In this document: in pieces, positions 41,187 to 56,586 of the stretch
Position numbering within the stretch: position 1 is the stretch's first letter
Layout of the letters: each line of letters opens with the position of its first letter
DNA from: Halarcobacter sp.
GTDB taxonomy: Bacteria; Campylobacterota; Campylobacteria; Campylobacterales; Arcobacteraceae
Direction of reading: 5' to 3'
Assembly: GCA_963676565.1 (NCBI GenBank)
Contig: OY781089.1
Location: forward strand, 960,001-1,024,000
DNA: 64,000 nucleotides
Made by a program: the position numbers and the translations under genes
The notes under the pieces: generated by a model
Databases searched by the model: none
The model's input: only the letters and a program-made list of their open reading frames with translations
What the model was told of the DNA's origin: nothing

Positions 41187-41206
41187 TATTTATTACTAGT
41201 TAATTT
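41176..41206. terminator. 13-bp perfect inverted repeat spanning the dxs and secretin stop codons
   Basis: AAATTAACTAGTA-N5-TACTAGTTAATTT. Confidence 0.6.
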
Positions 41207-42642
41207 CCATAAAGTATTTTATTTACCCTTTGCTGATGTTTTTCCTCATCTGTTAATTCAACTTTTTCTTTTTTATTTTCTATTTTTTTAGTTGTTTCTG
41301 CAATCTCTTTCTCGTTTTCCATTTCTTCTTGATCTTTCATTTTGTAAAGATTATTCTTTTGTTTACTATAATCTCTATCTTTGATAATGTTCATTTTTTT
41401 CTTTAAGATTTTTTTCTCATCATGGTTCATTGGATCAACTATTTCAGGGGTCATGAAAAATACTAAATCATAGTTCTCATCATTTGTTGATCTACTTGAA
41501 AATAATTGTCCTAATAAAGGTATATCGCCTAAGCCTGGGATTTTTTCTTTATCTTGACTATAATCAGCTTTTAAAAGACCAGCTAAAACAATTGTAGAAC
41601 CATCTTCTATTAATACATTAGTTGTAACTTCATTACCTACTAAACCAGGGATGTCATCAACGGTATTAATATAATCAACATCATCAATTTTTGCCATTGC
41701 CTCAAAATCAATATATTGATTTTCAATAATCTTTTTTGCCTTCATTGAGATATTTAGACCATATTCAATCTCTTTTAATTCAGTTGATGGTACTCCCTCA
41801 GCTGTTGTAGTTGAAGATTTGATGAAAAACTTACCACCTGTATTAAATTTAGCTTCCTGATTCTCTTTCATAATCAAGGTACTTTCATTTACTATTCTAG
41901 CCGCATTGTTTTTTCTTAGGTAATTTAGTGTAAGACCTAAGTTAAAATCAGAACCTAATGTTTGCGCAGCAAGTGTTATTCCACCTGTTAAACTTGTAAT
42001 ATTAGCATTAAAATTACCAGTTAATGTATCATTTGTAGATTTATTACTAAATGTCCAATCATTGATAAGTTGTTCATTGTTATTATTATCTATTTGAACC
42101 ACATAAACTTTCACTCTAACCATTTTAGTTGAGTAATTGTCTTTAATTAAGTCAATTAATTGAGCTTCTGTGTCAATTCCATATTTTTTAAATATTTCAA
42201 TAAGTTTAGATTTTTGTGTTTGATTTTTTACATGTCCTTGTAGTATAACTGTATCATTGATTTGAGAGACTTGAACATTAGGGTAAAGATGATTAATTAG
42301 TTGAATTATATCATTCATATTTTTAACGATATTAAATTTAACTGTAACAACTGAATCATCTTGAAAAGTTACAATTGCACTTTGTTTACCAATTTTTTTC
42401 CCTTTTACTTTTAAGGTTGCTAGGGGGATATCGCTATCTTTTAAAAAATCAGCTTCAATATAATCACTTGAATCAAAATTAATTTTTTTAATTGTTTTAG
42501 TGAATTTAAGAATTTTATAGCCATTTAAATCTACAGTGACAATTTTATTTTCAAAATCTACTTGTTTTACAGCTTTAGTTTCTGATGCATTTAAAGAAAT
42601 GCAAAATAGTAGTAGTAATATAATAAAATTAATTTTTTTCAT
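41200..42642 (-). CDS. Tad secretin (RcpA/CpaC-like)
   Basis: Signal peptide from ATG 42642, BON-like region, secretin motifs DGSTIVLAGL, KIPGLGDIPLLGQLFSS, LVFFMTPEIV. Confidence 0.88.
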   Translation of the reverse strand: MKKINFIILLLLFCISLNASETKAVKQVDFENKIVTVDLNGYKILKFTKTIKKINFDSSDYIEADFLKDSDIPLATLKVKGKKIGKQSAIVTFQDDSVVTVKFNIVKNMNDIIQLINHLYPNVQVSQINDTVILQGHVKNQTQKSKLIEIFKKYGIDTEAQLIDLIKDNYSTKMVRVKVYVVQIDNNNNEQLINDWTFSNKSTNDTLTGNFNANITSLTGGITLAAQTLGSDFNLGLTLNYLRKNNAARIVNESTLIMKENQEAKFNTGGKFFIKSSTTTAEGVPSTELKEIEYGLNISMKAKKIIENQYIDFEAMAKIDDVDYINTVDDIPGLVGNEVTTNVLIEDGSTIVLAGLLKADYSQDKEKIPGLGDIPLLGQLFSSRSTNDENYDLVFFMTPEIVDPMNHDEKKILKKKMNIIKDRDYSKQKNNLYKMKDQEEMENEKEIAETTKKIENKKEKVELTDEEKHQQRVNKILYGN

Positions 42643-42650
42643 CTTCTCTC

Positions 42651-43094
42651 CTAATTTGATAAAGTGATATTTAATGTACATGTTATTGTATTTGAATTAT
42701 TTTCATTAAATACTACTCTTTTACTTACAAGATTATTACCAAAAAACTTATAAGAGTTATTTGTTGTTTGGGTAATAAAAATAACTTGATAGGCTCCATT
42801 TGCATTAAAACCACATATTGTATTTGTATCTGCTGAGACATTGTTTATAGCAGCTACTTTCATTGCATTAATGTTTGCCGTTAAATCAGCACCTATACCA
42901 TTAATTGCTACATTTCTTGAACCATAATCAGATATTGCATCCATATTATCTTTTACTCTAACAATTGTTGCGTAATCTACAACAAAAAAGAATAGGGTAA
43001 CAAAGCCTATAAACATTACCATCCATAAAAGAATGTTTTCTATATATGCTTTTTTAAAGCTTTGTTCTTTTTTTCTGATAGTTTTTTTACACAT
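42651..43094 (-). CDS. TadE/F-like minor pilin (non-canonical)
   Basis: Basic leader KKA, then YIENILLWMVMF hydrophobic helix; Cys pair; lies inside the Tad locus. Confidence 0.6.
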   Translation of the reverse strand: MCKKTIRKKEQSFKKAYIENILLWMVMFIGFVTLFFFVVDYATIVRVKDNMDAISDYGSRNVAINGIGADLTANINAMKVAAINNVSADTNTICGFNANGAYQVIFITQTTNNSYKFFGNNLVSKRVVFNENNSNTITCTLNITLSN

Positions 43095-43096
43095 CC

Positions 43097-44257
43097 TTAT
43101 TTTCTTAACCCTTTATACTCTTTAAATGATATCTCTTTTACATCTTTTTTCTGAATATAAGTTCCATCACAAATAACAAACCAACCTGGATTTATTTTAG
43201 ATAAACCAGTGTGTGCCAATACATAGTTTTTATATATTTTATTATCTATTTTGGCTCTAATAGATGGTAATTTTCTTAGGTATGCTTTATTTGATATTAC
43301 AATTAATAAATTGTCATTTTTTGAACACTCTTTTGTTAAATCATTTTGTAAATTAACAGTTTTTGATTTTTTCAAAGAGGGTTTGTCTGCATATTCAATT
43401 ATTGCAGTTTTTTGTTCAGTATTAATTTTTGGATAATATCTTTTTATTGGATAAGATTTTTTTACATATGTTGGTTTTTTTAGACTTTTTGGTACTTCTT
43501 TTTTAACAATTTTCTTTATCTCTTCTTTTTCATCTTTTTCATCTTTTTTATCTTTTTCAGGTTCTAGTCTTGATTTTATCATCCAAAGCTGACTACCTTT
43601 ATTCCAATCTTCTATTAAAGCTAACATATCTTTTTCTTTAATATCTAAAATTAACTCAGAGGCTCTTACATTTACAATCTCTTCAATTGTTTGTTTTTTT
43701 ACAACTTTTTTTATCTTTTTCTTAAAAATTGCTTTTTCAGAGGGTAAACCATCAGCAAGAAAACCTAATACTCTTATATTTTTAATAACATATTGTACTG
43801 ATACACCTTTTTCATTTGTAACAGATACAATTTTAATTAAATCATTTGGCTCTAATGTAAAATTGGGGTTTCTAAACATTTTGTATTGCATATTGTAACT
43901 ATTGTATTTGAAGTCAATTTTCTCTTGTTTCTTTTCTTCAATTTTTGTTGTTAACTTTTGTTTTAAAAATGCTTCATTTAAGTAAATAGTTTCTTTTGCA
44001 TATTTGTTAACTATTTCTTTTTGAAGTAGTGGTTTAGTTAATACAAATTGTCTTGCAATTGTAGTACTTTTAATATCTTTTTCAGTAATTAATGTACCCT
44101 TTTTAATATCTTTATTTGCAACAAAAATTCTAACTAATCTATTTTGTTCCTCAACCACTTTTTTATTTTCTTGATAAAAATATACTGATACTGCAATTGC
44201 AGACAGTAACATTGAAAGTAGAATTAATATTATTGCTACTTGTTTATTGAATTTCAT
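43097..44257 (-). CDS. CpaB/RcpC-like SAF-domain protein with C-terminal SH3-like domain
   Basis: N-terminal TM, VANKDIKKGTLITEKDI (SAF), IKNIRVL, C-terminal YLRKLPS...GWF. Confidence 0.78.
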   Translation of the reverse strand: MKFNKQVAIILILLSMLLSAIAVSVYFYQENKKVVEEQNRLVRIFVANKDIKKGTLITEKDIKSTTIARQFVLTKPLLQKEIVNKYAKETIYLNEAFLKQKLTTKIEEKKQEKIDFKYNSYNMQYKMFRNPNFTLEPNDLIKIVSVTNEKGVSVQYVIKNIRVLGFLADGLPSEKAIFKKKIKKVVKKQTIEEIVNVRASELILDIKEKDMLALIEDWNKGSQLWMIKSRLEPEKDKKDEKDEKEEIKKIVKKEVPKSLKKPTYVKKSYPIKRYYPKINTEQKTAIIEYADKPSLKKSKTVNLQNDLTKECSKNDNLLIVISNKAYLRKLPSIRAKIDNKIYKNYVLAHTGLSKINPGWFVICDGTYIQKKDVKEISFKEYKGLRK

Positions 44258-44271
44258 ATTTCCCCTTCATT

Positions 44272-45117
44272 TTACATTCCAAATTCTAATTTCCCAGCCA
44301 TTAAAGGAAAGATTATAAAAGCCCCTAGTGATGGAAGTACAAATATAAAAATAACTAACATTAAGTACATATTTAATGTATTTACTTTACCTTTAATTTT
44401 ATAAAACTTTTCTTGTCTCATTTCATCTGACTGTGTAGAAAATATATTTTTTACACCAATTCCAGCTTCTTCACTTAAAATTAAGAAATCAACTATTTTA
44501 CCTACGTCATCGGAATCAACTCTTTTTTTTAGATTTTCATAAGCTTTTTTAGTAGAATAGTTTGTCATTTCATATTCAAGAATTGCTACTTCTTTTAACA
44601 ATTCTTCATCTAATATTCCATGCGCTCTTGTTGAAACTGTAAAAAAAGCATTTTTTAATCCCCCTCCAGCTTCTAATATTACATTGATTAAATCTAAAAA
44701 AACACCTAAATCATTATTTATCTTTTCAACTCTTTCAGATTTTGATATGCTTATATATAGAGGACCTCCAAATAGTAAAAGAACTATTCCAACTGCAATT
44801 CCAATTATTCCTACAAGACTAAGACCAAATAGTATAGGCAAAGCTATTGATACAATTATGCCTATTAGTGCAAATACTAGTTTACCTTCATTGTATTCTT
44901 TTTTTGTAAGTCCAGCTTGAACTAGTTTAAAGTATAGATCTTTAGAGTGGTTTTCTTCTGTACCTTTATTCAACTCTTTTTGTTGATCAACAATACCAAC
45001 TGCATCAAGTTTTGATAATAATACTATTTGCTTTTTTTGACCCTTTGAATCAAATAAATACCAAACTAGTATTCCTAAAATTACTAAAATAATCGGTGAA
45101 AAATAAATTAAATCCAT
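44272..45117 (-). CDS. tadC: TadC-like inner membrane platform protein
   Basis: T2SSF-type FLDLINVILEAGGG...EMRQEK; follows tadB. Confidence 0.8.
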   Translation of the reverse strand: MDLIYFSPIILVILGILVWYLFDSKGQKKQIVLLSKLDAVGIVDQQKELNKGTEENHSKDLYFKLVQAGLTKKEYNEGKLVFALIGIIVSIALPILFGLSLVGIIGIAVGIVLLLFGGPLYISISKSERVEKINNDLGVFLDLINVILEAGGGLKNAFFTVSTRAHGILDEELLKEVAILEYEMTNYSTKKAYENLKKRVDSDDVGKIVDFLILSEEAGIGVKNIFSTQSDEMRQEKFYKIKGKVNTLNMYLMLVIFIFVLPSLGAFIIFPLMAGKLEFGM

Positions 45118-45118
45118 T

Positions 45119-46051
45119 TTATCCCTTAACTTTTGTTAATAAGTTATTTACAAAAATACCAAAAGCTACCCATACAGCAATAAAGAACATTTGTACTTGC
45201 CCCTCACTAGTACCAAAGAAATGTTCATCTAGAACACCATCAAGTGAACTATCCATCATTTTATAAATAAAAATCACTAAAGCAATAATCATATAACTTC
45301 CCACTTTTATTTCTCTAGTTGAAGCTGTGATTTCTTGTTTTATTTCACCTTGGTCATGTAAAGTTTTTCTTAGTTTTTCTAAAGTATTTGAGAACTTACC
45401 ACCTGATTGTCTACCAATTGAGATTGTTAAGTAAAAGATTCTTAATTCTTTAGATTCTACAAGAGTAAACATTTTTTGGAAAGCTTTATCTTCTCCTACA
45501 ATATCTTTTTCAACAAGATATAAAGTAAACACTTCTTTTGCAAATTTAGATCTTGATGTGGCAACAGATTTTTTTAAAGCTTGCTCAAATCCAACACCAC
45601 TTTTCATCATACTAGTTACTTTATCTATTATTCCTTTTAATGCAAAGTTAAATTCTTCTAATCTGTTGTCAATCAATTTTTTTAAAACCAATAAGGGGAA
45701 AAAAGAAAATATTATAGCACTAATAGCAAATACTACAGGGTTTGTAATTACAAAGTTTATAAATATTGCTGATAAGAAACCAAAGGCTACAGAAATTATT
45801 ATAAACACAGTTTCAGAATAAGGGGATGAATAACCTGCATAAGTTAATCTTTTCCCTAACCAATTTCTTTCTTTTTTATTTAATCTTGATCTTTTTTTAC
45901 TACCTTCTAATATTTCATTATTATCTTTTGATAATTTACTAATAATTCTATTTTTTTTATTATATTCTAAAGAAAAGTTATAAATTAAAATACCTATAAG
46001 TACTAATAAAATAGGTATAATAATAATTAAAACTATTGTTAAAATATTCAC
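45119..46051 (-). CDS. tadB: TadB-like inner membrane platform protein
   Basis: MKSGVGFEQAL, IGRQSGGKFSNTL; GTG 46051 chosen because the track start overlaps tadA. Confidence 0.82.
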   Translation of the reverse strand: MNILTIVLIIIIPILLVLIGILIYNFSLEYNKKNRIISKLSKDNNEILEGSKKRSRLNKKERNWLGKRLTYAGYSSPYSETVFIIISVAFGFLSAIFINFVITNPVVFAISAIIFSFFPLLVLKKLIDNRLEEFNFALKGIIDKVTSMMKSGVGFEQALKKSVATSRSKFAKEVFTLYLVEKDIVGEDKAFQKMFTLVESKELRIFYLTISIGRQSGGKFSNTLEKLRKTLHDQGEIKQEITASTREIKVGSYMIIALVIFIYKMMDSSLDGVLDEHFFGTSEGQVQMFFIAVWVAFGIFVNNLLTKVKG

Positions 46052-46055
46052 GTTA

Positions 46056-47660
46056 TTAGTCTCTTTGTATTTTTTGGAAATGTGGCCATTTATGGAAAAT
46101 TTGTGGATCTTGATGTAAAAAAATATCAACAAATTCATCTTTCCATCCACACATTTTATCTGGTAAATCTTTTTCCAATTCATCAATCAACATAGATTTT
46201 GGCATCTCAAACTCTTTATTAAAAATAGATATATCTATATCCACACCAAACATATTCATTTGATTGACTGTTCTTGAAGGTGTCGAGACAACTTCAAATT
46301 TACCTTTTGTTTTGGACATATCACTAGTATCTCTTTTAAATTCAAAAATATTGTTCAATGAGATTACTGAATTGTCTTCAATCCTTCTTTCAACTTCAGA
46401 GATTGTAATTACTTTTCTTGTTCCATCAGGGAACCTTACAAGTTGTAAAATCAAATCAACTGCTGAAACAATTTGAGCTCTAATAAAGTTAATATTTGCA
46501 CTAGGTCTTGCTTCCAAATACATATTTTCAATTCTTACTAATGCTTCTTTTGTATTATCGGCGTGAACTGTTGTCATAGATCCAGGGTGTCCTGTATTCA
46601 TGGCATTTAACATTACAACAATCTCGGCCCCTCTACACTCCCCAACAATAATTCTTCTAGGAGATGATCTAAGAGCTGAACGAAGTAAAAACTCTAATGG
46701 AATTGCACCTTTCCCTTCTTCATTTGCCATTCTTGCTTCATATTGTCTAATTGAGTGACATGGCATTTGAGGTTTCATCTCTTTTGTATCTTCAATTACC
46801 ATTAATTGTTCATTCTCATCAATAAATCTAGTCATAGCATTAAGAAAAGTTGTTTTACCACTTGAAGTACCACCTGAAACAATGATATTACATTTGCCCT
46901 TAGCTACTTTAAGTAAAAAGTATGCCATTTTATAATCCATTTGTCCTGAATCAATCAAAAATTCTAAAAGTAGTGGAAGGTCATTAAACTTTCTTATTGT
47001 TACGCAACTTCCGTCATTTGCTGCGATTGGAGGGATTTGTACTTCAACCCTAGAACCATCTTTTAATTTACTTGACATAATAGGATGTGCTTCATCAATT
47101 TTTCTATTATTTTCAGCAAGCATTTTATCAATTACTTTTCGTAGTTCCTCTTCGCTTCTAAAGGTAAATGGTGTTTGGACAGTTTTACCTTTGTAAATAA
47201 TATCAATATAATCTTTTGTATTTATAATTACATCATTTAAACCATCTTTTGCAATATTGAAAAGTGCAGTTATAGGGCCATATCCAATAACATTGTTTAT
47301 AATAAACTCTTTGATATCTTCTAGAATATTTTTTGGAAGTTTAGATGCTTGTTTAAAAGATAGTATAAATTCTGGTAAAACATCTTCTAGTGAATCACGT
47401 GTGATTTTCTTATCAGACTTTAGATTTATCATAAAGTTATCATTTATTTCATAAGCTAATTCTAAAAGTTTAGCATCTAAATAAATTTTTGGAAAAACAA
47501 GTTCATTATGTTTATTTCTTTTTTTTACTTGCTCAATTTTTTCTTTTGCAATGGAATTTGTACTTGGTTCTTCTACAATAGATTCTTCAGTAGAAAAAGA
47601 TTGTTTCTTTATCTCTTTTTTTTGTTCTTCATCTGCAATTAAGAGTCTTAAGTTTTTCAA
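46056..47660 (-). CDS. tadA: Tad pilus assembly ATPase (TadA/CpaF)
   Basis: GYGPI, GGTSSGKTT, IEDTKE, RIIVGECRG, MNTGHPGSMTTVHA. Confidence 0.95.
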   Translation of the reverse strand: MKNLRLLIADEEQKKEIKKQSFSTEESIVEEPSTNSIAKEKIEQVKKRNKHNELVFPKIYLDAKLLELAYEINDNFMINLKSDKKITRDSLEDVLPEFILSFKQASKLPKNILEDIKEFIINNVIGYGPITALFNIAKDGLNDVIINTKDYIDIIYKGKTVQTPFTFRSEEELRKVIDKMLAENNRKIDEAHPIMSSKLKDGSRVEVQIPPIAANDGSCVTIRKFNDLPLLLEFLIDSGQMDYKMAYFLLKVAKGKCNIIVSGGTSSGKTTFLNAMTRFIDENEQLMVIEDTKEMKPQMPCHSIRQYEARMANEEGKGAIPLEFLLRSALRSSPRRIIVGECRGAEIVVMLNAMNTGHPGSMTTVHADNTKEALVRIENMYLEARPSANINFIRAQIVSAVDLILQLVRFPDGTRKVITISEVERRIEDNSVISLNNIFEFKRDTSDMSKTKGKFEVVSTPSRTVNQMNMFGVDIDISIFNKEFEMPKSMLIDELEKDLPDKMCGWKDEFVDIFLHQDPQIFHKWPHFQKIQRD

Positions 47661-49249
47661 TTTTTATCCTTATTTAAAAAACCAAATAGACTTTTTTGTT
47701 TTTTTATCTTTTGAACTGTATCCCCTATATATTCCTTATCTCTTAAGATACTTTCTAGGTTTGTTACAAAAATAGAATCTGATGAGATACTAGAAGCAAG
47801 TTCACAGTAGTTCCAACATTTACCTAGAGTTTGATAATCATTTGGAATTTTAAGATAATTTATTTTATCTTCTTTCGAACTTGTATTCATAATTGAATCA
47901 AAATCTGAAGAAGAGATTTCATTTAATGAATTAACTCTATTAACTATAAAAGTAACTTTTTCTTTTAATCCAGCTCTTTTCATAAGTGAATAAAATGTTT
48001 TTAGTTTACTAACATGTGGTAGTGTCATTTCTGTTAATACCCAAATCTCATTTACTAAATCATATACTGTACTTTTAAGTGAAGAAGCATCAGCTTCTCC
48101 AGTATCTATGATTATGTAATTAAATTTTTCACTAGCTTTTAGTAAATAATCTAACATTTTTTCTATAAAATTATCTTTTTCAATTAAATCTTTATCAATA
48201 TGCTTTTGAATACCATTAATTGAATAAAAGTTTTCTCGTACCTTTACTAATCCTAGTTCAAGATTTTTCTTAAGATTAAAATCTCCAAAATTAACTAAAT
48301 CGATGATTGTTTCACTAGGGATTGGATTTTGAGATAAAAAAAGATTGCTTATAGCTTTAGTTGTAGATAAATCAACATATAAAACATTTTTGTTTGGATT
48401 GTTTTTTGCAATTAAATCTGCAGCATTCATTGAAACAGTAGTTGATCCAATACCTCCTGATACTCCACTAATAGCAATGATTTTATTATCGTTTTTATTT
48501 TTATTAATAAGTTTATATTTTGTATCTAAGATTATATTTTTGATTTTTTCAGGGGAAAATTCATCAATAGAGATATAGTTTTCAATATTTAGTTTTCCAC
48601 AGGTAAGTGAGAGGTGGTGATCATTTGGGCCAACCACTATTACAAATTCATTAAAAGTTCTTAAAATATGCTCATCATCATTTATAAGTTCATTATTTTG
48701 CACTGTATAAATTATAATGTTTTTAGAATTTTTTAAATTTAGTTTATCTGAAACTTTTGCTATATCATGAATTACACTAATATCAGCGTTTAGTAAAATA
48801 TCTAAATTTGTTTCTAACTTATTAGCAAATTTAACTGTATTCTTATCTGTAACTATGAAAATATTTAATGGTGTATTTTGAGATAAAAGATCTTTTTCTA
48901 TTTCAAATATCTTTCTTAAAGCGATTTTTGATTTTTTTAGAAGCTCTCTTAAAACAGACCTATACCAAATTCTTTTGTTAAAAGTAATTTTTCCAAAAAT
49001 TACATCACCATCTTTTAGGATAATAGAATATTTATTATTTATAAAATTGATATCATCATCGATTATGTCATATCCATCAATAGTAAAACCATATACAAAA
49101 TTATTGTATTTAAAATCATATTTCATAAATGTTAGTTTTTGAATATTTGAGATTAGTACAAAAAGTTGTAGTATTTCTATTACATTTTCTCTTCTAATCT
49201 CAAGAGCACCTTGTATATTTGAATATTCTTGATACTGTTTATAATCCAT
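47657..49249 (-). CDS. TadZ/CpaE-like MinD/ParA-type protein with long N-terminal extension
   Basis: Deviant Walker A SGVSGGIGSTT, YVDL, YIIIDTG, IVNR; lies upstream of tadA. Confidence 0.78.
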   Translation of the reverse strand: MDYKQYQEYSNIQGALEIRRENVIEILQLFVLISNIQKLTFMKYDFKYNNFVYGFTIDGYDIIDDDINFINNKYSIILKDGDVIFGKITFNKRIWYRSVLRELLKKSKIALRKIFEIEKDLLSQNTPLNIFIVTDKNTVKFANKLETNLDILLNADISVIHDIAKVSDKLNLKNSKNIIIYTVQNNELINDDEHILRTFNEFVIVVGPNDHHLSLTCGKLNIENYISIDEFSPEKIKNIILDTKYKLINKNKNDNKIIAISGVSGGIGSTTVSMNAADLIAKNNPNKNVLYVDLSTTKAISNLFLSQNPIPSETIIDLVNFGDFNLKKNLELGLVKVRENFYSINGIQKHIDKDLIEKDNFIEKMLDYLLKASEKFNYIIIDTGEADASSLKSTVYDLVNEIWVLTEMTLPHVSKLKTFYSLMKRAGLKEKVTFIVNRVNSLNEISSSDFDSIMNTSSKEDKINYLKIPNDYQTLGKCWNYCELASSISSDSIFVTNLESILRDKEYIGDTVQKIKKQKSLFGFLNKDKN

Positions 49250-49265
49250 TAATTTAAATCCTTTA

Positions 49266-51659
49266 CTATTGTTTAACTATATTAATTTCATCTATTGCAA
49301 CCCATTCATCATTCCAACTTGTATTAGGTCTAAAAGTGATTTTTAAGTTACCACTACTATCTGTAGTTCCAGAAAAATTTTTAGGAGTCCAATATCCATT
49401 TGTTTCATAGAATCCATAAGAGTAAGTATTATTCAAATAAACTTCTAATTTTTCATTACTTTCCCAACTAGTTGGTGTTGCATAGTTTAAAGATATTGAA
49501 ACATCAACATTTTTACATCCATTTCCAAAGTTATATGTTTTATAACCATAGTCATCTCTTTCGATTACATAATAGGAATTATATCTATATCCCCCTGACC
49601 AGTATTCTGAGTTAGAAGAGAAATCATCAGTTTCATTTATTGTACATTCAACATTTGCAATTATGTTTAATATAAATGAGGTATTAGTAGAATCTGTACC
49701 ATCTGTTGCTATTATATTTACTATAACTGGTGAATAGTGTTGAGTATTATCAGGAATAGTTGTACTTAATACAGCATTTGTTGTAGTATTATAGCCTAAT
49801 GAAGCAGCTGTAACAGTATAAGTAACATCATCTCCATCAGAATCAGTGCAATAAGTATCTAAATTTAAACTAAAGTTTTCAGTTTCAGTTGCCGTTTGTG
49901 TTGGAATTGTTTGACATTGAGGCGCGTTATTATTTATATTTTCTGTAACATTTATTGAAAATGATGGCAATGAAACTGAAGTAAAACCATCTGATACAGA
50001 GATTACTATACTTGTATAATTTCCAACTTGAGAATTATTTGGGGCACCTGATAATTGTCCTGTATTTGTATCAAAATTTGCCCATAAAGGTTTGTTTGAA
50101 ATTGAAAATGTTAAATTATCTCCATCTGGGTCAGAAGCAACAGGTACAAAAGAATAAATACTTCCAGCTTGTATTGTTCTCATTGGATTTCCACTAATTA
50201 CTGGTGCTTGATTAATGTTATTAACTGTAATTGTACATGTTTGAATATTGCTTGAACCTTCATTATCTCTAGCAATTATAGTAATAATATCATCACCATA
50301 AAAATCTGTATTTGGTGTATATGTAATTGAATCAGTACCAACTAAAACTGAACCATTAATTGCAGAACCTGTAATATCAGATATCCACTTATCATCAGAT
50401 GAAGTAAATGAAAAAGTTGATGTTGTATTTTCATCAATTGGAGCAGGGCAACTTAAAACTAAAGTTGGTTGAGCATTACCATTACAAGTTAAATTTATAG
50501 ACCCATCACTTAAAACACTATAAGTGTTTAATTGGTTTGGAATTACAACTCTAGTAGTGTTTAAAAAGATGTCATTAAAGTCTTCATCTCCACCACCATT
50601 TAAATCTTCCATTGCATATCTATACTCATCATTTATATCATGAATACAATCATTAACACCCTCTTTATAACTTGTTGCAGGATCATTTGTAATATCAGGA
50701 ATATTATTGAATTGATTATTATCATAATTAACTACATTACAGTGATCTATAAAATCATCATAAGTCTGTGTTCCTTGACCTGCAAAAGCACCATATCCTC
50801 CAACAAATTCATTATATGTAGTCCAAACACTTTCAGGGATAATTTGTATATGAGGATAACCATCTCCATTTAATTCATTATGCTCAAAATAAACATTGGC
50901 ATTTTCTCTTTTTACACCATTAATATTAACAGTTGGATTTCCAGATACATTATCAAAACAATATGTTCCATTACCATTTTCTCCAAATGTCATAGTATCA
51001 CCAACATTGGGTCTTGCATATCCATTTTTAAAAATATTATAACCATCTGAGATTAAAAAAACGTGAGTTGGTGGACTAGTTATTGCTGTTCCATTATTTA
51101 GAAGCGTTCCAACAAGATTATGATCATCTGAGTTTGCTAAAATTATTCTTGTGTTTGTAACACAGTTGTTTCTATCTAAATCATAAAGTCCCACCATATT
51201 TGTAAATCCAGCACTTTCTCCACCATAAGTTATTGTAACACTTCTTGGGGTATTAACTGCTTCTGTCCAAGAAAAAGGACCTACTGTAAAATCATTTTTA
51301 TCAAAAAATCTATACCAAAAGGTATCATAGGGATGTTGTGCAATAGATGCGGTAACTTGATCAGGCTCACCATCTCCATCACTATCCCACCATCTGTAAG
51401 ATACCAGTTGGTTTGATAAGGTTTCATTTCCTAATTTTTGTTGATTTAAAATTGAAGTAGTTATATTTTGTGCAGTACACATATCAATATTTGATTCATA
51501 ATATCTTGCCATAGCATTTGCAGAGCTTTTTACTAGAGCTTTCAAATCATAAATATAATTTCTTGTTGAGGTTTCATCATTTACTGTTGCAACAAAGGTT
51601 ACTATTCCCATAAGAAGTAGGAAGCCTAAAAAAAGTTGGTCTAATACTGCTTTTTTCAA
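49266..51659 (-). CDS. Large pilin-like adhesin (TadG-like N-terminus, DUF4114-like domain, Ig/cadherin-like repeats)
   Basis: KKA + hydrophobic helix; ESAGFTNMVGLY and EDLNGGGDEDFND; YTPNTDFYGDD; NQAPVISG...DPDGDNLTF...TGQLSGAP. Confidence 0.75.
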   Translation of the reverse strand: MKKAVLDQLFLGFLLLMGIVTFVATVNDETSTRNYIYDLKALVKSSANAMARYYESNIDMCTAQNITTSILNQQKLGNETLSNQLVSYRWWDSDGDGEPDQVTASIAQHPYDTFWYRFFDKNDFTVGPFSWTEAVNTPRSVTITYGGESAGFTNMVGLYDLDRNNCVTNTRIILANSDDHNLVGTLLNNGTAITSPPTHVFLISDGYNIFKNGYARPNVGDTMTFGENGNGTYCFDNVSGNPTVNINGVKRENANVYFEHNELNGDGYPHIQIIPESVWTTYNEFVGGYGAFAGQGTQTYDDFIDHCNVVNYDNNQFNNIPDITNDPATSYKEGVNDCIHDINDEYRYAMEDLNGGGDEDFNDIFLNTTRVVIPNQLNTYSVLSDGSINLTCNGNAQPTLVLSCPAPIDENTTSTFSFTSSDDKWISDITGSAINGSVLVGTDSITYTPNTDFYGDDIITIIARDNEGSSNIQTCTITVNNINQAPVISGNPMRTIQAGSIYSFVPVASDPDGDNLTFSISNKPLWANFDTNTGQLSGAPNNSQVGNYTSIVISVSDGFTSVSLPSFSINVTENINNNAPQCQTIPTQTATETENFSLNLDTYCTDSDGDDVTYTVTAASLGYNTTTNAVLSTTIPDNTQHYSPVIVNIIATDGTDSTNTSFILNIIANVECTINETDDFSSNSEYWSGGYRYNSYYVIERDDYGYKTYNFGNGCKNVDVSISLNYATPTSWESNEKLEVYLNNTYSYGFYETNGYWTPKNFSGTTDSSGNLKITFRPNTSWNDEWVAIDEINIVKQ

Positions 51660-51672
51660 AAAATCCCCTTTT

Positions 51673-52107
51673 TTAAATTTGATAAATTCCTATTTTATAG
51701 AATATTTCTGTTAAACAAACAGCTAAAAAAATAGCTGGAGCCATAGGCGCAACCTTGCGTCTTTTATATTTTTGAATAAAAATTAAAAATAGTGCTTGAC
51801 AAAGACCTGTTAAAATTAAAAATAATGGAAATAATAAAGGTTCTAAATATATAGCCACAACCATAATATATTTGATATCCCCACCACCTAAAATTTGTTT
51901 AGGCATTATTAATAATATTATAACAAAAAATATTAAAATTACAAGTGAAATAATGAATGATATGTAGTTTAGTTTATCTTCAAGCAAGCCAAAGATTAGT
52001 AGAAATAAAAATAAGGTAGCAAGTGTGATATTTGGTATTTTAAATTTAGTACAATCAGTATATGAAAGTAGTAATGAAAATATGTAAAATGATAATGTAA
52101 AAATCAT
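51673..52107 (-). CDS. Prepilin peptidase A24 (TadV/CpaA-like)
   Basis: YTD...IPN and LGGGDIK aspartates, P-M-AP; no methyltransferase domain. Confidence 0.88.
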   Translation of the reverse strand: MIFTLSFYIFSLLLSYTDCTKFKIPNITLATLFLFLLIFGLLEDKLNYISFIISLVILIFFVIILLIMPKQILGGGDIKYIMVVAIYLEPLLFPLFLILTGLCQALFLIFIQKYKRRKVAPMAPAIFLAVCLTEIFYKIGIYQI

Positions 52108-52111
52108 TTAA

Positions 52112-52297
52112 TTAGGTGTTAGTAATTGAAATTATTCTTGTATTAGATTCATTTTTTAAAGTTTCTTTATGCTGTGAAAACCAAGATTCTATGGCAATTA
52201 ATCCTACAATGCCAGCTATTACAAGAAGTAAAGTAACTAGGATTTTATCCATTGCACCTTTTTCTGATTTTAATCTTCTTTTTAAAAATTCTAACAT
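52112..52297 (-). CDS. Flp-like major pilin (non-canonical motif)
   Basis: 61 aa; leader ...LKSEKG, then a ~20-aa hydrophobic helix; first gene of the Tad run; GGAG RBS. Confidence 0.78.
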   Translation of the reverse strand: MLEFLKRRLKSEKGAMDKILVTLLLVIAGIVGLIAIESWFSQHKETLKNESNTRIISITNT

Positions 52298-52325: not shown

Positions 52326-52334
52326 ATTATAGCA
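52326..52334 (-). promoter_or_regulatory. Extended -10 sigma70 promoter upstream of the pilin
   Basis: TGCTATAAT on the minus strand, about 30 bp upstream of the ATG. Confidence 0.6.
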
Positions 52335-52342
52335 CAAAAAAG

Positions 52343-53824
52343 CTAAAGTTTTCTAAATATAAGCTTAGAGTTCATTATTTTATAAAATTTATACCCTGAA
52401 TCTCTAATTGATTTATCAGAAAATTTTAAGTTTGATGTCTTATTAGTATCGATTATAAAGTAATCTGGAGAATTTTTCTTTAAAAAACTATTAAAATCTT
52501 CTATAGTTATTTTTTCATTATTACTTAATAAATCAAAATAAATCTTTTTATCTTTTTGATTGTAAGTTACCCAACCTAAAGAACAACTTGGAATATAACT
52601 TCCTGTTGGATTTAAATAAGTTGACATATAACCATATGTACCAATAGAAGAGAAAAGTATCCTTTTCCCTTTATATTCATTTTCTTTTATAAATTGCATA
52701 TCTAAAAAAGTTTTTTCAAGTAAATTTGTCTCTTTTTTATAATCATCAAATGTTTTTATAAAAAATAATATTGTAATTATAATAGTTATAAAAAAATAGA
52801 ATTTTTTTGGAAAATCTAAAAAAAATGTTTTTTCTTTGAGATAGTTTTTAATTCTATCAATATAATTATTAAAGCCATTTTTTTCTATGAATTTAAAAGA
52901 AGAATAAAATAAATGAATTAAAAAGATATAAAATAGAGGTTCTAACAAATTTAAGAATCTTTGCTGAATAATAAATAATGGTATAAATAAAATTACATAT
53001 TTTAGTAAAATTTCTTTAGGTTTTAATACATAATAAATTGTTAAAGAAAAAAATACTAATAATAGCAGTAAATTTGTAGATCCAAGACTATTCTTTAACT
53101 CTAAAGGGATAATAAAAGGTTTACTTTCTCCAACACTATATGATTGTGTTAAAAAGTCATTATTTAATACAAATTGAATAATTCTTAAATAACCATCCAA
53201 ATCAAAATAAGAATAAAAAAGAAATCCAAATAATAAAGAAACTACAATTAAAATAGTTTTGTAGTAATCTTTTAATATTATAGTTACATAAGCAATAAAA
53301 CCAAAGTAAAACCAAAAAACATAATAAAATGGTGCGTAAAGTAAAGGGATTATAAATAAAATTTTTTTATTTCTTAATGTGAGAAAATATAATATAAAAA
53401 GACCACTTAATAAATCAGGTCTTAAGAAAAAATACCTAAAACTAAGTAAAGGAAGACCAATTGAAAAAATTATTGTATAAATTGTAGAAACTTCAGTAAA
53501 TCTCTTGAATGCTAAATAGTACCAAAAAGATAAAAGAGTATATACTATTGAGTTAACAAAAATTGGTACAGTAGATTTGTCCATAAAGTTTAATAAAAAT
53601 GATAAAAGATAATGCCAGGAAAACCAAGGATCAAAATCATTATATAATGAAAAAGGGTACAGTCTCTCCCATGAAACTATTTTATCTGGATAAAATGCCA
53701 TAGCTAAATGTCTCCATCCGTCATCTGGCATGGTTAATCCAAGGTTTTTAATAATCAATATTGAGCAAATTAAAAAAAGAAAAAATACTACAAAATTAAA
53801 TTTTAGTGCTTTTGGTTGATTCAT
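52343..53824 (-). CDS. Polytopic membrane protein, GT-C-like glycosyltransferase
   Basis: PDD motif after TM1 (PDDGWRH), about 11 TMs, soluble C-terminal domain. Confidence 0.6.
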
Positions 53825-55223
53825 GATATTCTTTTTCTGTGTTTATATTCCATAAGGTATCTTTGTTTTTATTTTTGATTAAACAATCTACTGCTTCAAA
53901 ACTTGTCATCATAGAATGATCCATATTATTATATCTATGTTGACCATTTCTTCCAATACAAAATAAATTATCAAAGTTATTGAGATAGTTCTTTATTTCA
54001 TCAAATCTGTTATATGAACCAAAATAAGAAGGGTAGGCTTTTTTAACTTTTAATTGAACACTATCTAGCACCTCCTCTTTATTGATTAATTCAAGCTTTT
54101 CTAATTCATTAATTGCAAAGTTTTTAAAATCTTCTTCAGTCATTTCCCAAAGTTCATCATTTTCATTACAAAAATATTCTAATCCTATCCATGTTGTATT
54201 CTTATCTTTAACTAAAAAAGGTGACCAATTATTGAAAATTTGTAGTCTTCCTATTTTTACATCTGGCTCTTGAATATAAATCCAGTTATCTTTTAACTTA
54301 TTTAATTTACTTTTATTTAGTAGTATTCCAACTGTTATAAAATCTCTATACTCTAAGTTATCTGCAAGTTCTTTAATCTCATAAGATACATTATATAAAG
54401 TATTAATTAAATCTTTTATTGGCATTGAAGAAAAAATATAATCAAATTCATATGTGTTTTTTTTGGTTTTTAATTTAGTGATTTTAGAATTATCTGTTTC
54501 TAAAGCAATTACTTTTTCATTAAATATTATATTTCCACCATTGGATTTAATTTTATCTGCTACAGACTCCCAAAGTTGGCCTGGTCCATATTTTGGATAC
54601 TTGAATTGTTCAATTAAAGAAGTTTCAATATTTTTTGAATTAAGATTCCCAAAACTTTTCTTAAATATGTGAATTAAAACAGATCTAATTGATAATCCTT
54701 TAACTCTTTGATAGCCAAATAATGCAGCTATTTTATTGCAAGGAACGCCCCATACTTTTTCTGTATAGTCTCTAAAAAAAGTAGCATATAATTGAAATCC
54801 AAACCTATTTATAAAAAAATCTTCTAAAGTTTTTTCTTCCCTTTTAAGAATTATTGCTTTTAGATATGAAAGACCAATTTTGATAAATCTAGTAAAGCCT
54901 ATATTTTTTATTGTATTTTTGTTTAATGTAACGGGATAATCGTAAAATTTTCTTTCATATAAAATTCTTGATTTTCTATCTCGTATTAAAAACTCTTCAT
55001 CTAAAACTTCATTCCACCATTTATTAACTTTTTTTATTTTACTAAAAAATCTATGACCTCCAATATCAATTCTATTACCATTATGATAATAAGTCTTAGA
55101 TATACCACCAATAAACTCTGATTCTTCTAAAATTGTAACATTATATTTATTCATTTTTAGTAGTTCATAAGCAGCAGTTAAACCAGCAGGTCCAGCACCT
55201 ATAATTATAATTTTTTCTTTCAT
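53796..55223 (-). CDS. FAD-dependent oxidoreductase, UDP-galactopyranose-mutase-like
   Basis: [46 protein letters not shown]. Confidence 0.75.
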
Positions 55224-55329: not shown

Positions 55330-56586
55330 TTGTTCTTTTTTCTTATTATCACAATTTTTTTATTTCATCCTGTACCAACTATTTTAGACTATAAAATAAC
55401 AAGTTTTAAATTTGTCCCTTATAGTGAGATTATTTTTATATTGATAATAATATTAAGTTTTTTTTCTTTAGAAAAAAAAATATTTTTTGTAAATATTTTA
55501 AGGGATAAGATTTCAAGAGTTTTTATGTTGATGTTTTTAATATTTCTCTTTGGAATAACATGGTCAACAGATAAAACAAATAGTATAATAATTTTTAAAT
55601 CAGTTAGTTATTTACTAATAGTTCCAATTTTAATAGTAACTTTGAAGAAATCAACAGCCAAATATTTACTTTTCTTTTTATTATTAATGACTATTGTTTC
55701 AGCAAGTATGACAAACATTTTGTATTTTTCTAATTTGAGTTTAGATTTGGAAATAAAATTAACGAATGTTTCCCCTTTTATAAATAATATGTATTATGGA
55801 ACAATTTTATCTCTCTCTTTTATTTATTTTTTTATCAATTTTAATTTTAAAGATAAACTATTTATTATTTTAATCAATCTATTTTCAATGTTTGCTATTT
55901 TTACTTCAATGTCAATTATTTGTAATAGAAGTAGTTTAATAGGAATGTTAGTTGCCATTTCTATTTATTTATGGTTTAGAAATAATACTTATTTTTTATT
56001 AAAAAGGTTAGGGGTTATTTTAGTTACTGTTTTATCATTATTAATCTATAGCAATTTAATAAATCCTGGCTGTGGATTAAAGTTTTTCAATATGGAGAAA
56101 TCACTTTCTAAAGAGATAAGTGGGAAAAGAACAGGTACAAGTTTAGGTTGCAGATTAAATTATATAGAAAATTCAATAGAATTGATTAAAGAGAATCCTA
56201 TTATAGGGGTAGGAACTGGGGATAGCTTATATTCCATGAAAAATCATTTTGGAGAAGATGTCTATTTGGATATTGTTACTAAACCTTGTTATTTAGGGCC
56301 ACATAATCAAATCTTTTATTTTGATAATCATAATATGTACTTAACAATGTTAATGCTTTTTGGTCCTTTAGGATTAATTGTTTTTATTTATTTTTTCTAT
56401 GAGATTTTTAGAGTAGGTGTGATATTAAATTCATGGGAATTAAAGTCAATTATTATAATTGTTTCATTAGCCTCAATTCCTATAACACTATTTTATACAA
56501 GTAGTAATTTTGTATTATTTTTTTCTTTTTATGTAAGTCTTTTATATATTGTAAAAAAAGATTCATTTACCAATGAGAATTCTTAA
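55330..56586 (+). CDS. O-antigen ligase / O-oligosaccharyltransferase family (Wzy_C)
   Basis: About 12 TMs; periplasmic loop with R...NPIIGVGTG...HNMYL. The true start may lie upstream. Confidence 0.82.
   Translation: MFFFLIITIFLFHPVPTILDYKITSFKFVPYSEIIFILIIILSFFSLEKKIFFVNILRDKISRVFMLMFLIFLFGITWSTDKTNSIIIFKSVSYLLIVPILIVTLKKSTAKYLLFFLLLMTIVSASMTNILYFSNLSLDLEIKLTNVSPFINNMYYGTILSLSFIYFFINFNFKDKLFIILINLFSMFAIFTSMSIICNRSSLIGMLVAISIYLWFRNNTYFLLKRLGVILVTVLSLLIYSNLINPGCGLKFFNMEKSLSKEISGKRTGTSLGCRLNYIENSIELIKENPIIGVGTGDSLYSMKNHFGEDVYLDIVTKPCYLGPHNQIFYFDNHNMYLTMLMLFGPLGLIVFIYFFYEIFRVGVILNSWELKSIIIIVSLASIPITLFYTSSNFVLFFSFYVSLLYIVKKDSFTNENS

Follow-up and report, generated by a model that had tools for sequence, protein, structure and literature searches.

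Tad/Flp (type IVc) pili, such as those of A. actinomycetemcomitans (Flp1-TadV-RcpCAB-TadZABCDEFG) and C. crescentus (PilA-CpaA-F), combine a short helix-only major pilin with a short A24 peptidase without methyltransferase domain, a CpaF/TadA ATPase, the split TadB/TadC pair, TadZ, CpaB/RcpC, a secretin and pilin-like accessory proteins. The major pilin, Flp, is defined by the motif G↓xxxxEY (the arrow marks the cleavage site) with a glycine at position 7 (G7) and the acid at +5, as given in the available parts of PMC10710030 and PMC12075869. According to the available text of PMC10710030, the glutamate in question (Glu5) shows absolute conservation among bacterial type IV pilins, and that of PMC4471445 calls it almost invariable in class III signal peptides. 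Here we describe a locus in a window of 64,000 nucleotides from a Halarcobacter sp. (contig OY781089.1, positions 960,001 to 1,024,000 of the forward strand), which is part of a complete 3.34-Mb genome. The locus is alike in all the parts named above. It differs in the pilins: the Flp-like major pilin, a large pilin-like protein and a TadE-like minor pilin all carry the acid at +3. Judged by its sequence, the locus is a distinct, so far unannotated Tad pilus variant with a coordinated +3 register.

The open reading frame (ORF) translations give the N-termini directly. The Flp-like pilin reads MLEFLKRRLKSEKG↓AMDKILVTLLLV, that is, ...KSEKG↓AMDKILVTLLLV, the large protein MKKA↓VLDQLFLGFLLL..., and the TadE-like protein ...QSFKKA↓YIENILLWMVMF.... 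With a cut after G or A assumed, all three share K-[G/A]-x-x-[D/E] with a hydrophobic helix after it, and lack both E at +5 and Y or F at +6. The initial annotation, made from the letters of the window, had proposed exactly this shared non-canonical motif, and the translations confirm it. The layout of class III signal peptides, namely a hydrophilic leader ending in G or A and then about 20 hydrophobic residues, is present in the three proteins and in their homologues. We searched the six-frame ORFs of at least 40 amino acids (aa) of the whole genome with the pattern [KR][GA]xx[DE]x[ILVMF]{2} followed by at least 12 hydrophobic residues near the N-terminus. Only 6 of the 9738 ORFs matched. Three of them are the genes discussed here, inside one 9.6-kb operon, and the remaining three matches lie within larger membrane proteins. 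Three matches within one operon are more than chance. Compared with every bacterial pilin described, the acid stands two places nearer to the predicted cut, and we consider it confirmed, at the level of predicted N-termini, that this is a real, conserved variant of a known machine. Relative to canonical Flp it looks as if the Flp-like family had lost the two residues that come after the glycine of the cut, with DK taking the place of EY.

The three genes belong to ten co-directional genes on the minus strand (41200-52297), which make up a complete Tad-type pilus operon according to the ORF list and to Pfam, NCBIfam and PDB comparisons. In gene order, preceded by a promoter-like site, they are:

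52326..52355, minus strand: promoter-like site upstream of flp (TAGAAA, 18 nt, TATAAT; TG precedes the -10 element).
52112..52297, minus strand: Flp-like major prepilin, first gene of the operon; 61 aa, with a 14-aa basic leader MLEFLKRRLKSEKG and a predicted mature form of 47 aa starting A-M-D-K.
51673..52107, minus strand: short TadV/CpaA-type A24 aspartyl prepilin peptidase; 144 aa, catalytic D18 and D77, PF01478 40.9 bits (cut-off 26.5).
49266..51659, minus strand: large pilin-like protein, putative tip adhesin; 797 aa, TTG start, MKKA↓VLDQ, matches to Big_9, He_PIG and Cadherin_4.
47657..49249, minus strand: TadZ/CpaE-like ParA/MinD-type ATPase; 530 aa, AAA_31 and BcsQ/MinD-type matches, operon position conserved.
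46056..47660, minus strand: TadA/CpaF-type assembly ATPase; 534 aa, T2SSE 1.5e-43.
45119..46186, minus strand: TadB-type platform protein; T2SSF 2e-8, single domain.
44272..45117, minus strand: TadC-type platform protein; 281 aa, T2SSF 5.3e-7, single domain.
43097..44257, minus strand: CpaB/RcpC-like protein; 386 aa, N-terminal anchor, SAF 9.5e-5, TIGR03177 pilus_cpaB 1.3e-6, below its cut-off.
42651..43094, minus strand: TadE-like minor pilin; 147 aa, ...FKKA↓YIEN....
41200..42681, minus strand: RcpA/CpaC-type secretin; 493 aa, Secretin 9.8e-35.

The longest TadB ORF, with its TTG at 46186, shares 131 bases (46056-46186) with the end of tadA, and TadB of relatives has about 308-316 aa; hence, translation of TadB probably begins further downstream. 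The region has 69 promoter-like sites against a shuffle mean of 80, so they are not enriched, and the site upstream of flp is no more than compatible with a promoter.

By its parts the locus is a Tad system. The CpaF/TadA-type ATPase, the split TadB and TadC, the short two-aspartate peptidase, TadZ/CpaE, CpaB/RcpC and the secretin stand in one operon, and the first gene encodes a helix-only pilin whose 61-aa precursor and 47-aa predicted mature form agree with the 40-60 residues of Flp pilins placed first in tad operons. The closest solved structure to TadA is CpaF (233 bits), followed by archaeal GspE2 (116 bits) and FlaI (113 bits). However, a canonical Campylobacterota TadA reaches 403 bits to CpaF, and the ATPase of the window is a distant CpaF relative. 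The gene order also differs from that of described type IVc pili, and TadD, RcpB and TadF are not recognized at the window locus by Pfam.

The pilins, in contrast, do not match the Flp family model, and the only TadE/G-like similarity, in the TadE-like protein, is sub-threshold. The Pfam models Flp_Fap and TadE and all NCBIfam models give no match to the three proteins at E ≤ 1. Flp_Fap (PF04964) matched 0/66 members of the Flp-like family and gave nothing at E ≤ 10 in a six-frame scan of the whole genome, where TadE (PF07811) was likewise unmatched; PF16982 (Flp1_like) matched 2/66 members weakly. With PF13400 (TadE/G-like) the TadE-like protein scores 16.8 bits (E 0.0088), below the cut-off of 22.3. 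The same model is sub-threshold in 29 of 38 TadE-like members (best E 0.0039), and TadF matched in 4/38. The motif differs accordingly: the window reads G↓AMDKILV where canonical loci of the phylum have G↓VTAIEYAL, and set against the canonical G↓xTAIEYGLI the pilin has its acid at +3, K in place of Y, and no G7. In annotation, NCBI names members of the family 'hypothetical protein' and JGI labels some 'Flp' or 'TadG'. No paper describing this variant was found in a literature search that did not extend to supplements, for instance the system tables of PMC6668835. A search on tight adherence and Arcobacter returned only an Osedax epibiont study, without pilin description.

Canonical Tad loci of the same phylum serve as controls. 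Of 401 genomes sampled from the phylum, 8 have clear Flp genes by the Pfam model, and all 8 belong to two other families (f2 and f3). There are none in the 23 sampled genomes of the family of the window, in its own genome, or in the 34 sampled genomes of f7, another family of the same order. These canonical loci have the same kinds of parts as the window locus, with a different order (flp-tadV-cpaB-secretin-tadZABCD-EFG). In all four that we inspected, Flp reads G↓VTAIEY, TadE G/A↓xAxIE and TadF A/G↓SxxxE, with the acid at +5 throughout, and TadG is without acid. Since the acid is at +5 in all processed classes of the canonical loci and at +3 in all three proteins here, the comparison supports a shift that is coordinated across three protein classes and lineage-specific. 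An alignment of the Flp-like family with canonical Flp by hhalign places G on G, opens a two-residue gap and sets D17 opposite E5, although the match is weak (probability 9.9%, E 0.0032). The initial annotation had suggested a coordinated shift, a distinct pilin subclass and a miss by standard Flp profiles. The first is borne out by the four control loci; the second is supported as a conserved subclass within a Tad-type machine; and the profile search came out as it had foreseen.

The +3 acid is kept in relatives, as the initial annotation had proposed to check. Among the Flp-like database matches listed, G-A-M-D is present in 120/120. TadE-like homologues have [A/G]-x-x-E in 36 of 37 and large-protein homologues A-x-x-[D/E] in 18 of 19, the sole exceptions being an N-terminally truncated gene call and a truncated call, respectively. 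We also compiled a set of 50 loci, comprising 47 from one-genome-per-species contigs, four further loci and the window, from which the duplicates L025 and L026 (same contigs as L053 and L067) were removed. In the D-type loci each of the 61 Flp-like ORFs with a leader has G at -1 and D at +3. TadE-like proteins carry an acid at +3 in 35/35 cases (19 D, 16 E) and large proteins in 38 of 44, the others having N (4), Q (1) or G (1). In the locus set the -1 residue is G in 64/64 leader-bearing Flp-like ORFs, A (33) or G (2) in the 35 TadE-like proteins, and A (41), G (2) or S (1) in the 44 large proteins. As the charge is strictly kept in D-type loci while D and E interchange, this pattern argues for selection acting on the acid itself within these loci.

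The operon is conserved as well. Of the 49 D-type loci, 29 have the full order flp(1-2)-peptidase-large protein-tadZ-A-B-C-cpaB-tadE-like-secretin, most others being cut by contig ends, and in 46 of the 49 the short A24 peptidase follows flp. Besides the genome of the window, only 3 of 23 genomes sampled from the same family have strong Flp-like matches, and 5 of 34 from f7. Such a patchy distribution in Arcobacteraceae and some other Campylobacterales fits a mobile or frequently lost island. The Flp-like leader MLEFLKRRLKSEKG (52258-52297) is near-invariant across genera, with F4, L5, K6, R7, R8, L9, E12 and K13 each conserved in at least 90% of 33 diverse sequences. This goes far beyond usual pilin leaders and suggests recognition by something other than charge alone.

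We infer from these N-termini that cleavage occurs after G or A. A position occupied only by G, A or S fits the rule, given in the available part of PMC4471445, by which processing depends critically on the final residue of the leader and can do without Glu5. The candidate enzyme is the short A24 peptidase of the operon, whose D18 and D77 show no variation across an alignment of 9 short peptidases. It is one of two A24 enzymes in the genome; the other is a 253-aa PilD-like peptidase with A24_N_bact and Peptidase_A24 domains, located at about 331.7-332.5 kb (G000:C1 in our genome set; L098:5722-6483). The same genome encodes three canonical pilins that have a short leader and carry E at +5, MKK[AG]↓FSL[FL]E (G000:C1:1821643-1822074, 1631898-1632290 and 1408265-1408612). 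Because these canonical G/A↓FSLxE pilins and the PilD-like peptidase coexist with the +3 operon, two pilin registers appear to stand side by side in one genome. Short peptidases of D-type and acid-less loci share GGGD[IL][KR][YF] and I-P-N/D after the first aspartate, whereas canonical Tad peptidases of the phylum have G[AG][AG]DVKL. Identity to the window peptidase is 43-47% within its family, 27% for f7 and 21-26% for the canonical enzymes, and a comparison with PDB sequences gave no match at E ≤ 10. These features are compatible with an enzyme dedicated to these substrates and are silent on specificity. Since a dedicated short peptidase nearly always follows flp and a separate PilD-like enzyme exists, co-adaptation of the peptidase to the shifted register is plausible.

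We suggest that the locus encodes a complete, strongly diverged Tad (type IVc) pilus with +3-register pilins, and we consider this probable and the best explanation of the data. Gene content, motif, register, conservation and the contrast with canonical loci are as observed above; where the cut falls, what the acid does and the placement at the tip are predicted. The mechanism could be as follows.

Step 1: The three pilin-like proteins would be inserted into the inner membrane via the hydrophobic helix, with the short basic leader at the cytoplasmic side. The A24 peptidase of the operon would use D18 and D77 to cut the Flp-like pilin after G14, the large protein after A4 and the TadE-like protein after A16. 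The mature N-termini would be A-M-D-K..., V-L-D-Q... and Y-I-E-N..., in which the sole charged residue of the N-terminal segment stands at +3, not at +5.

Step 2: The 47-residue pilin would be polymerised by the CpaF-like ATPase, the TadB/TadC platform and TadZ. The fibre would pass the outer membrane through CpaB and the secretin.

Step 3: The TadE-like protein and the large protein with its Ig and cadherin domains may prime the fibre and form the adhesin at its tip. In the assembly the +3 acid would do the job of Glu5, that is, charge neutralisation or registration of the N-terminus.

Several points weigh against parts of this proposal. The position of the cut is predicted in all members of the family. 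The hhalign probabilities are low (9.9% for Flp and 2.9% for the TadE-like alignment discussed below). There is no Pfam TadG/Tad match in the large protein or in 10 relatives, and the AF2 model of the TadE-like protein (pLDDT 77.3), one long N-terminal helix (residues 12-65) with a small beta head, gave no match to PDB at E ≤ 0.001 with Foldseek. A wide VIA-align search returned a best Z of 4.8, all matches being long helices; the fold searches neither support nor exclude a pilin fold for this modeled protein. The acid itself is missing in some relatives. The Flp-like profile, searched over 1.8 billion representatives, found 112 clusters, among which 14 are leader-bearing without acid (G-[MILV]-[SN]-G). 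In f7, Flp is KG↓MSGVLV in 5/5 genomes with strong matches, and in 3/3 loci Q occupies the corresponding position of the TadE-like protein (G↓MGQIMA, G↓FAQIMA and G↓LPQIMA). As f7 has the same core operon order and lacks the acid in both Flp and the TadE-like protein, the acid appears not to be required in the wider clade and may not be indispensable. In the Tad pilus structure from C. crescentus, as described in the available part of PMC10710030, Glu5 is surface-facing and forms no salt bridge. A Glu5-like role is itself uncertain for Tad pili because Glu5 of Caulobacter, in that description, points outward without a salt bridge.

The alternative that survives best is that the acid has no Glu5-like function. 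The pili would then be archaeal-style, with a core packed without acid, and the D or E would be a lineage-specific feature serving, for example, membrane topology or peptidase recognition. The acid-less f7 lineage with its same operon order and the 14 acid-less clusters speak for it. So do the links to archaeal type IV pilins with class III signal peptides (the Iho670 adhesion filament and Epd-type pilins): among solved structures the Flp-like profile matches the filament core of archaeal Iho670 best (E 0.005), and its weakest database matches are two archaeal-type KG↓ISPIL proteins that JGI names 'flagellin-like' (1e-4 and 7.6e-4). The two groups are alike in the K/R-G end of the leader, in not requiring Glu5, and in a short segment before a T-L-L-L-rich helix with W about 20 residues on. 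They differ in that the archaeal proteins have P, not an acid, at +3, and in that the machine of the window is bacterial, with a secretin, CpaB and an ATPase nearer to CpaF than to the archaeal ATPases. Against this alternative is the retention of the charge in D-type loci, where the TadE-like protein has D or E in every case and the Flp-like pilin always D. We regard it as possible but not probable. An archaeal 'missing link' via the ATPase was also considered and is unsupported, as the window TadA scores 116 bits to 2oap against 145 for a canonical TadA. Protein Atlas neighbours, all below 0.9 (the archaeal-type one 0.86, another 0.83), serve as leads only.

According to a second alternative only the Flp-like pilin is processed, while in the TadE-like and large proteins the uncut N-terminus serves as a signal anchor and the shared motif goes back to common descent. 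The leaders of both proteins are just 4 residues long in most relatives, and the large protein is without a recognized Tad domain; both points speak for it. However, the -1 residue is small in all of them (A, G or S in 35/35 TadE-like and 44/44 large proteins), and the spacing from it to the acid equals that of the major pilin. The TadE and TadF pseudopilins of A. actinomycetemcomitans are reportedly substrates of TadV, to go by the title of a 2006 study. We find this alternative rather unlikely.

The weakest alternative, a cut two residues earlier (E↓KGAMD, K↓KAVLD and K↓KAYIE) that would put the acid at the ordinary +5 without any shift, is favoured by an hhalign alignment of the TadE-like family with canonical TadE/TadF, which sets the family A on canonical +2 and E on E5 at the weak probability given above, but we dismiss it as very improbable: Flp-like pilins would then have E, Q, T, N, D or S at -1, and the minor ones K, R or V, where prepilin peptidases described in the available part of PMC4471445 need G, with A also occurring in canonical TadE/TadF of the control loci; many TadE-like and large proteins starting M-K-K-A would be left with a two-residue 'leader'; and the proposed -1 residue never varies where it is G and hardly ever where it is A.

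For the preferred reading, a diverged Tad pilus with all three proteins in the +3 register, the large protein and the paralogues of the pilin deserve a further look. The large protein has a conserved N-terminal module followed by Ig-like and cadherin-like domains. In hhalign its first ~56 residues align with the TadE-like family in the same register, again weakly (probability 33%, E 4.5e-4). Its size is about 315-470 aa in most genera (the window was compared with L024, L026, L030-L043 and others), and about 790-860 aa, with added Ig- and cadherin-like domains, in the window and some Halarcobacter/Arcobacter loci (L036, L044, L045 and L062-L065). The long versions look like an adhesin module added onto a conserved pilin-like base.

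Besides the 14 acid-less clusters, the 112 Flp-like clusters comprise 62 with G-x-x-[D/E], 25 that begin with M-[D/E], as far as the given gene starts hold, 3 that begin with M-S-G or M-N-K, and the odd remainder, to which the two archaeal-type proteins belong. A leaderless Flp-like paralogue is present in the genome itself, outside the window (G000:C1:3142362-3142523, minus strand), and further ones are found at L044:10207-10377, L063:10210-10377, L047:4356-4493 and L065:10266-10412. They start M-D/E/N-K/R-[IV]-L-V, their M corresponding to the +2 residue of the main pilin, and a stop codon few codons upstream excludes a leader. The copy in the genome of the window is preceded by TTGACA, 17 nt and TATAAT, and by a ribosome site AAGGGAGAG. 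A type IV pilin without need of a peptidase would be unusual.

The f7 sister system is alike in the core order tadZ-A-B-C-cpaB-tadE-like-secretin, in a short peptidase nearby and in a TadA with 231 bits to CpaF. It differs in its KG↓MSGVLV Flp and G↓xxQIMA TadE-like protein, in the location of flp at the other end of the operon, and in having no such large adhesin. In these f7 loci a 91-aa pilin-like ORF (L097:6662-6937, MRNGS-AAIVPLLLAIMLL...) and a 590-aa secreted protein (L097:6950-8722) come after the short peptidase, both without Pfam family.

Immediately upstream of flp in the window are a 493-aa polytopic membrane protein without Pfam family (52343-53824, minus strand), a flavin amine-oxidoreductase-like protein (53796-55223, minus strand) and a Wzy_C (O-antigen-ligase-type) protein (55330-56586, plus strand). 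The C-termini of Flp-like pilins are rich in S, T and N. Given these upstream genes and C-termini, glycosylation of the pilin is a possibility. As for expression, short contigs of relatives in a metatranscriptome (X20) cover parts of the locus including the flp leader at a depth of at most 7, where DNA carry-over is possible, and three raw oligo-dT runs have no read on the locus. The RNA data are neutral as to expression of the operon.

Last but not least, a broader, rather doubtful reading would make the D-type system and its acid-less sister a separate unnamed type IVc branch. Its pilins would have an archaeal-style N-terminus (a short pre-helix segment and a T-L-L-L...W core), and the position or presence of the 'universal' acid would move jointly in major and minor pilins. 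The dedicated peptidase may then read the shifted register, and the leaderless M-D/E-K paralogues may enter the fibre without a peptidase. If true, this branch would be a natural experiment on what Glu5 is for. Comparing the system with the +3 acid in the major pilin and both accessory pilin-like proteins with the sister lineage that has none could help to show the role of the acid in assembly. These pili are invisible to the Pfam and NCBIfam pilin models and their pilins are named 'hypothetical protein'; therefore, Tad pili are under-counted in genomes of the Arcobacter group, which includes host-associated and food-borne species.

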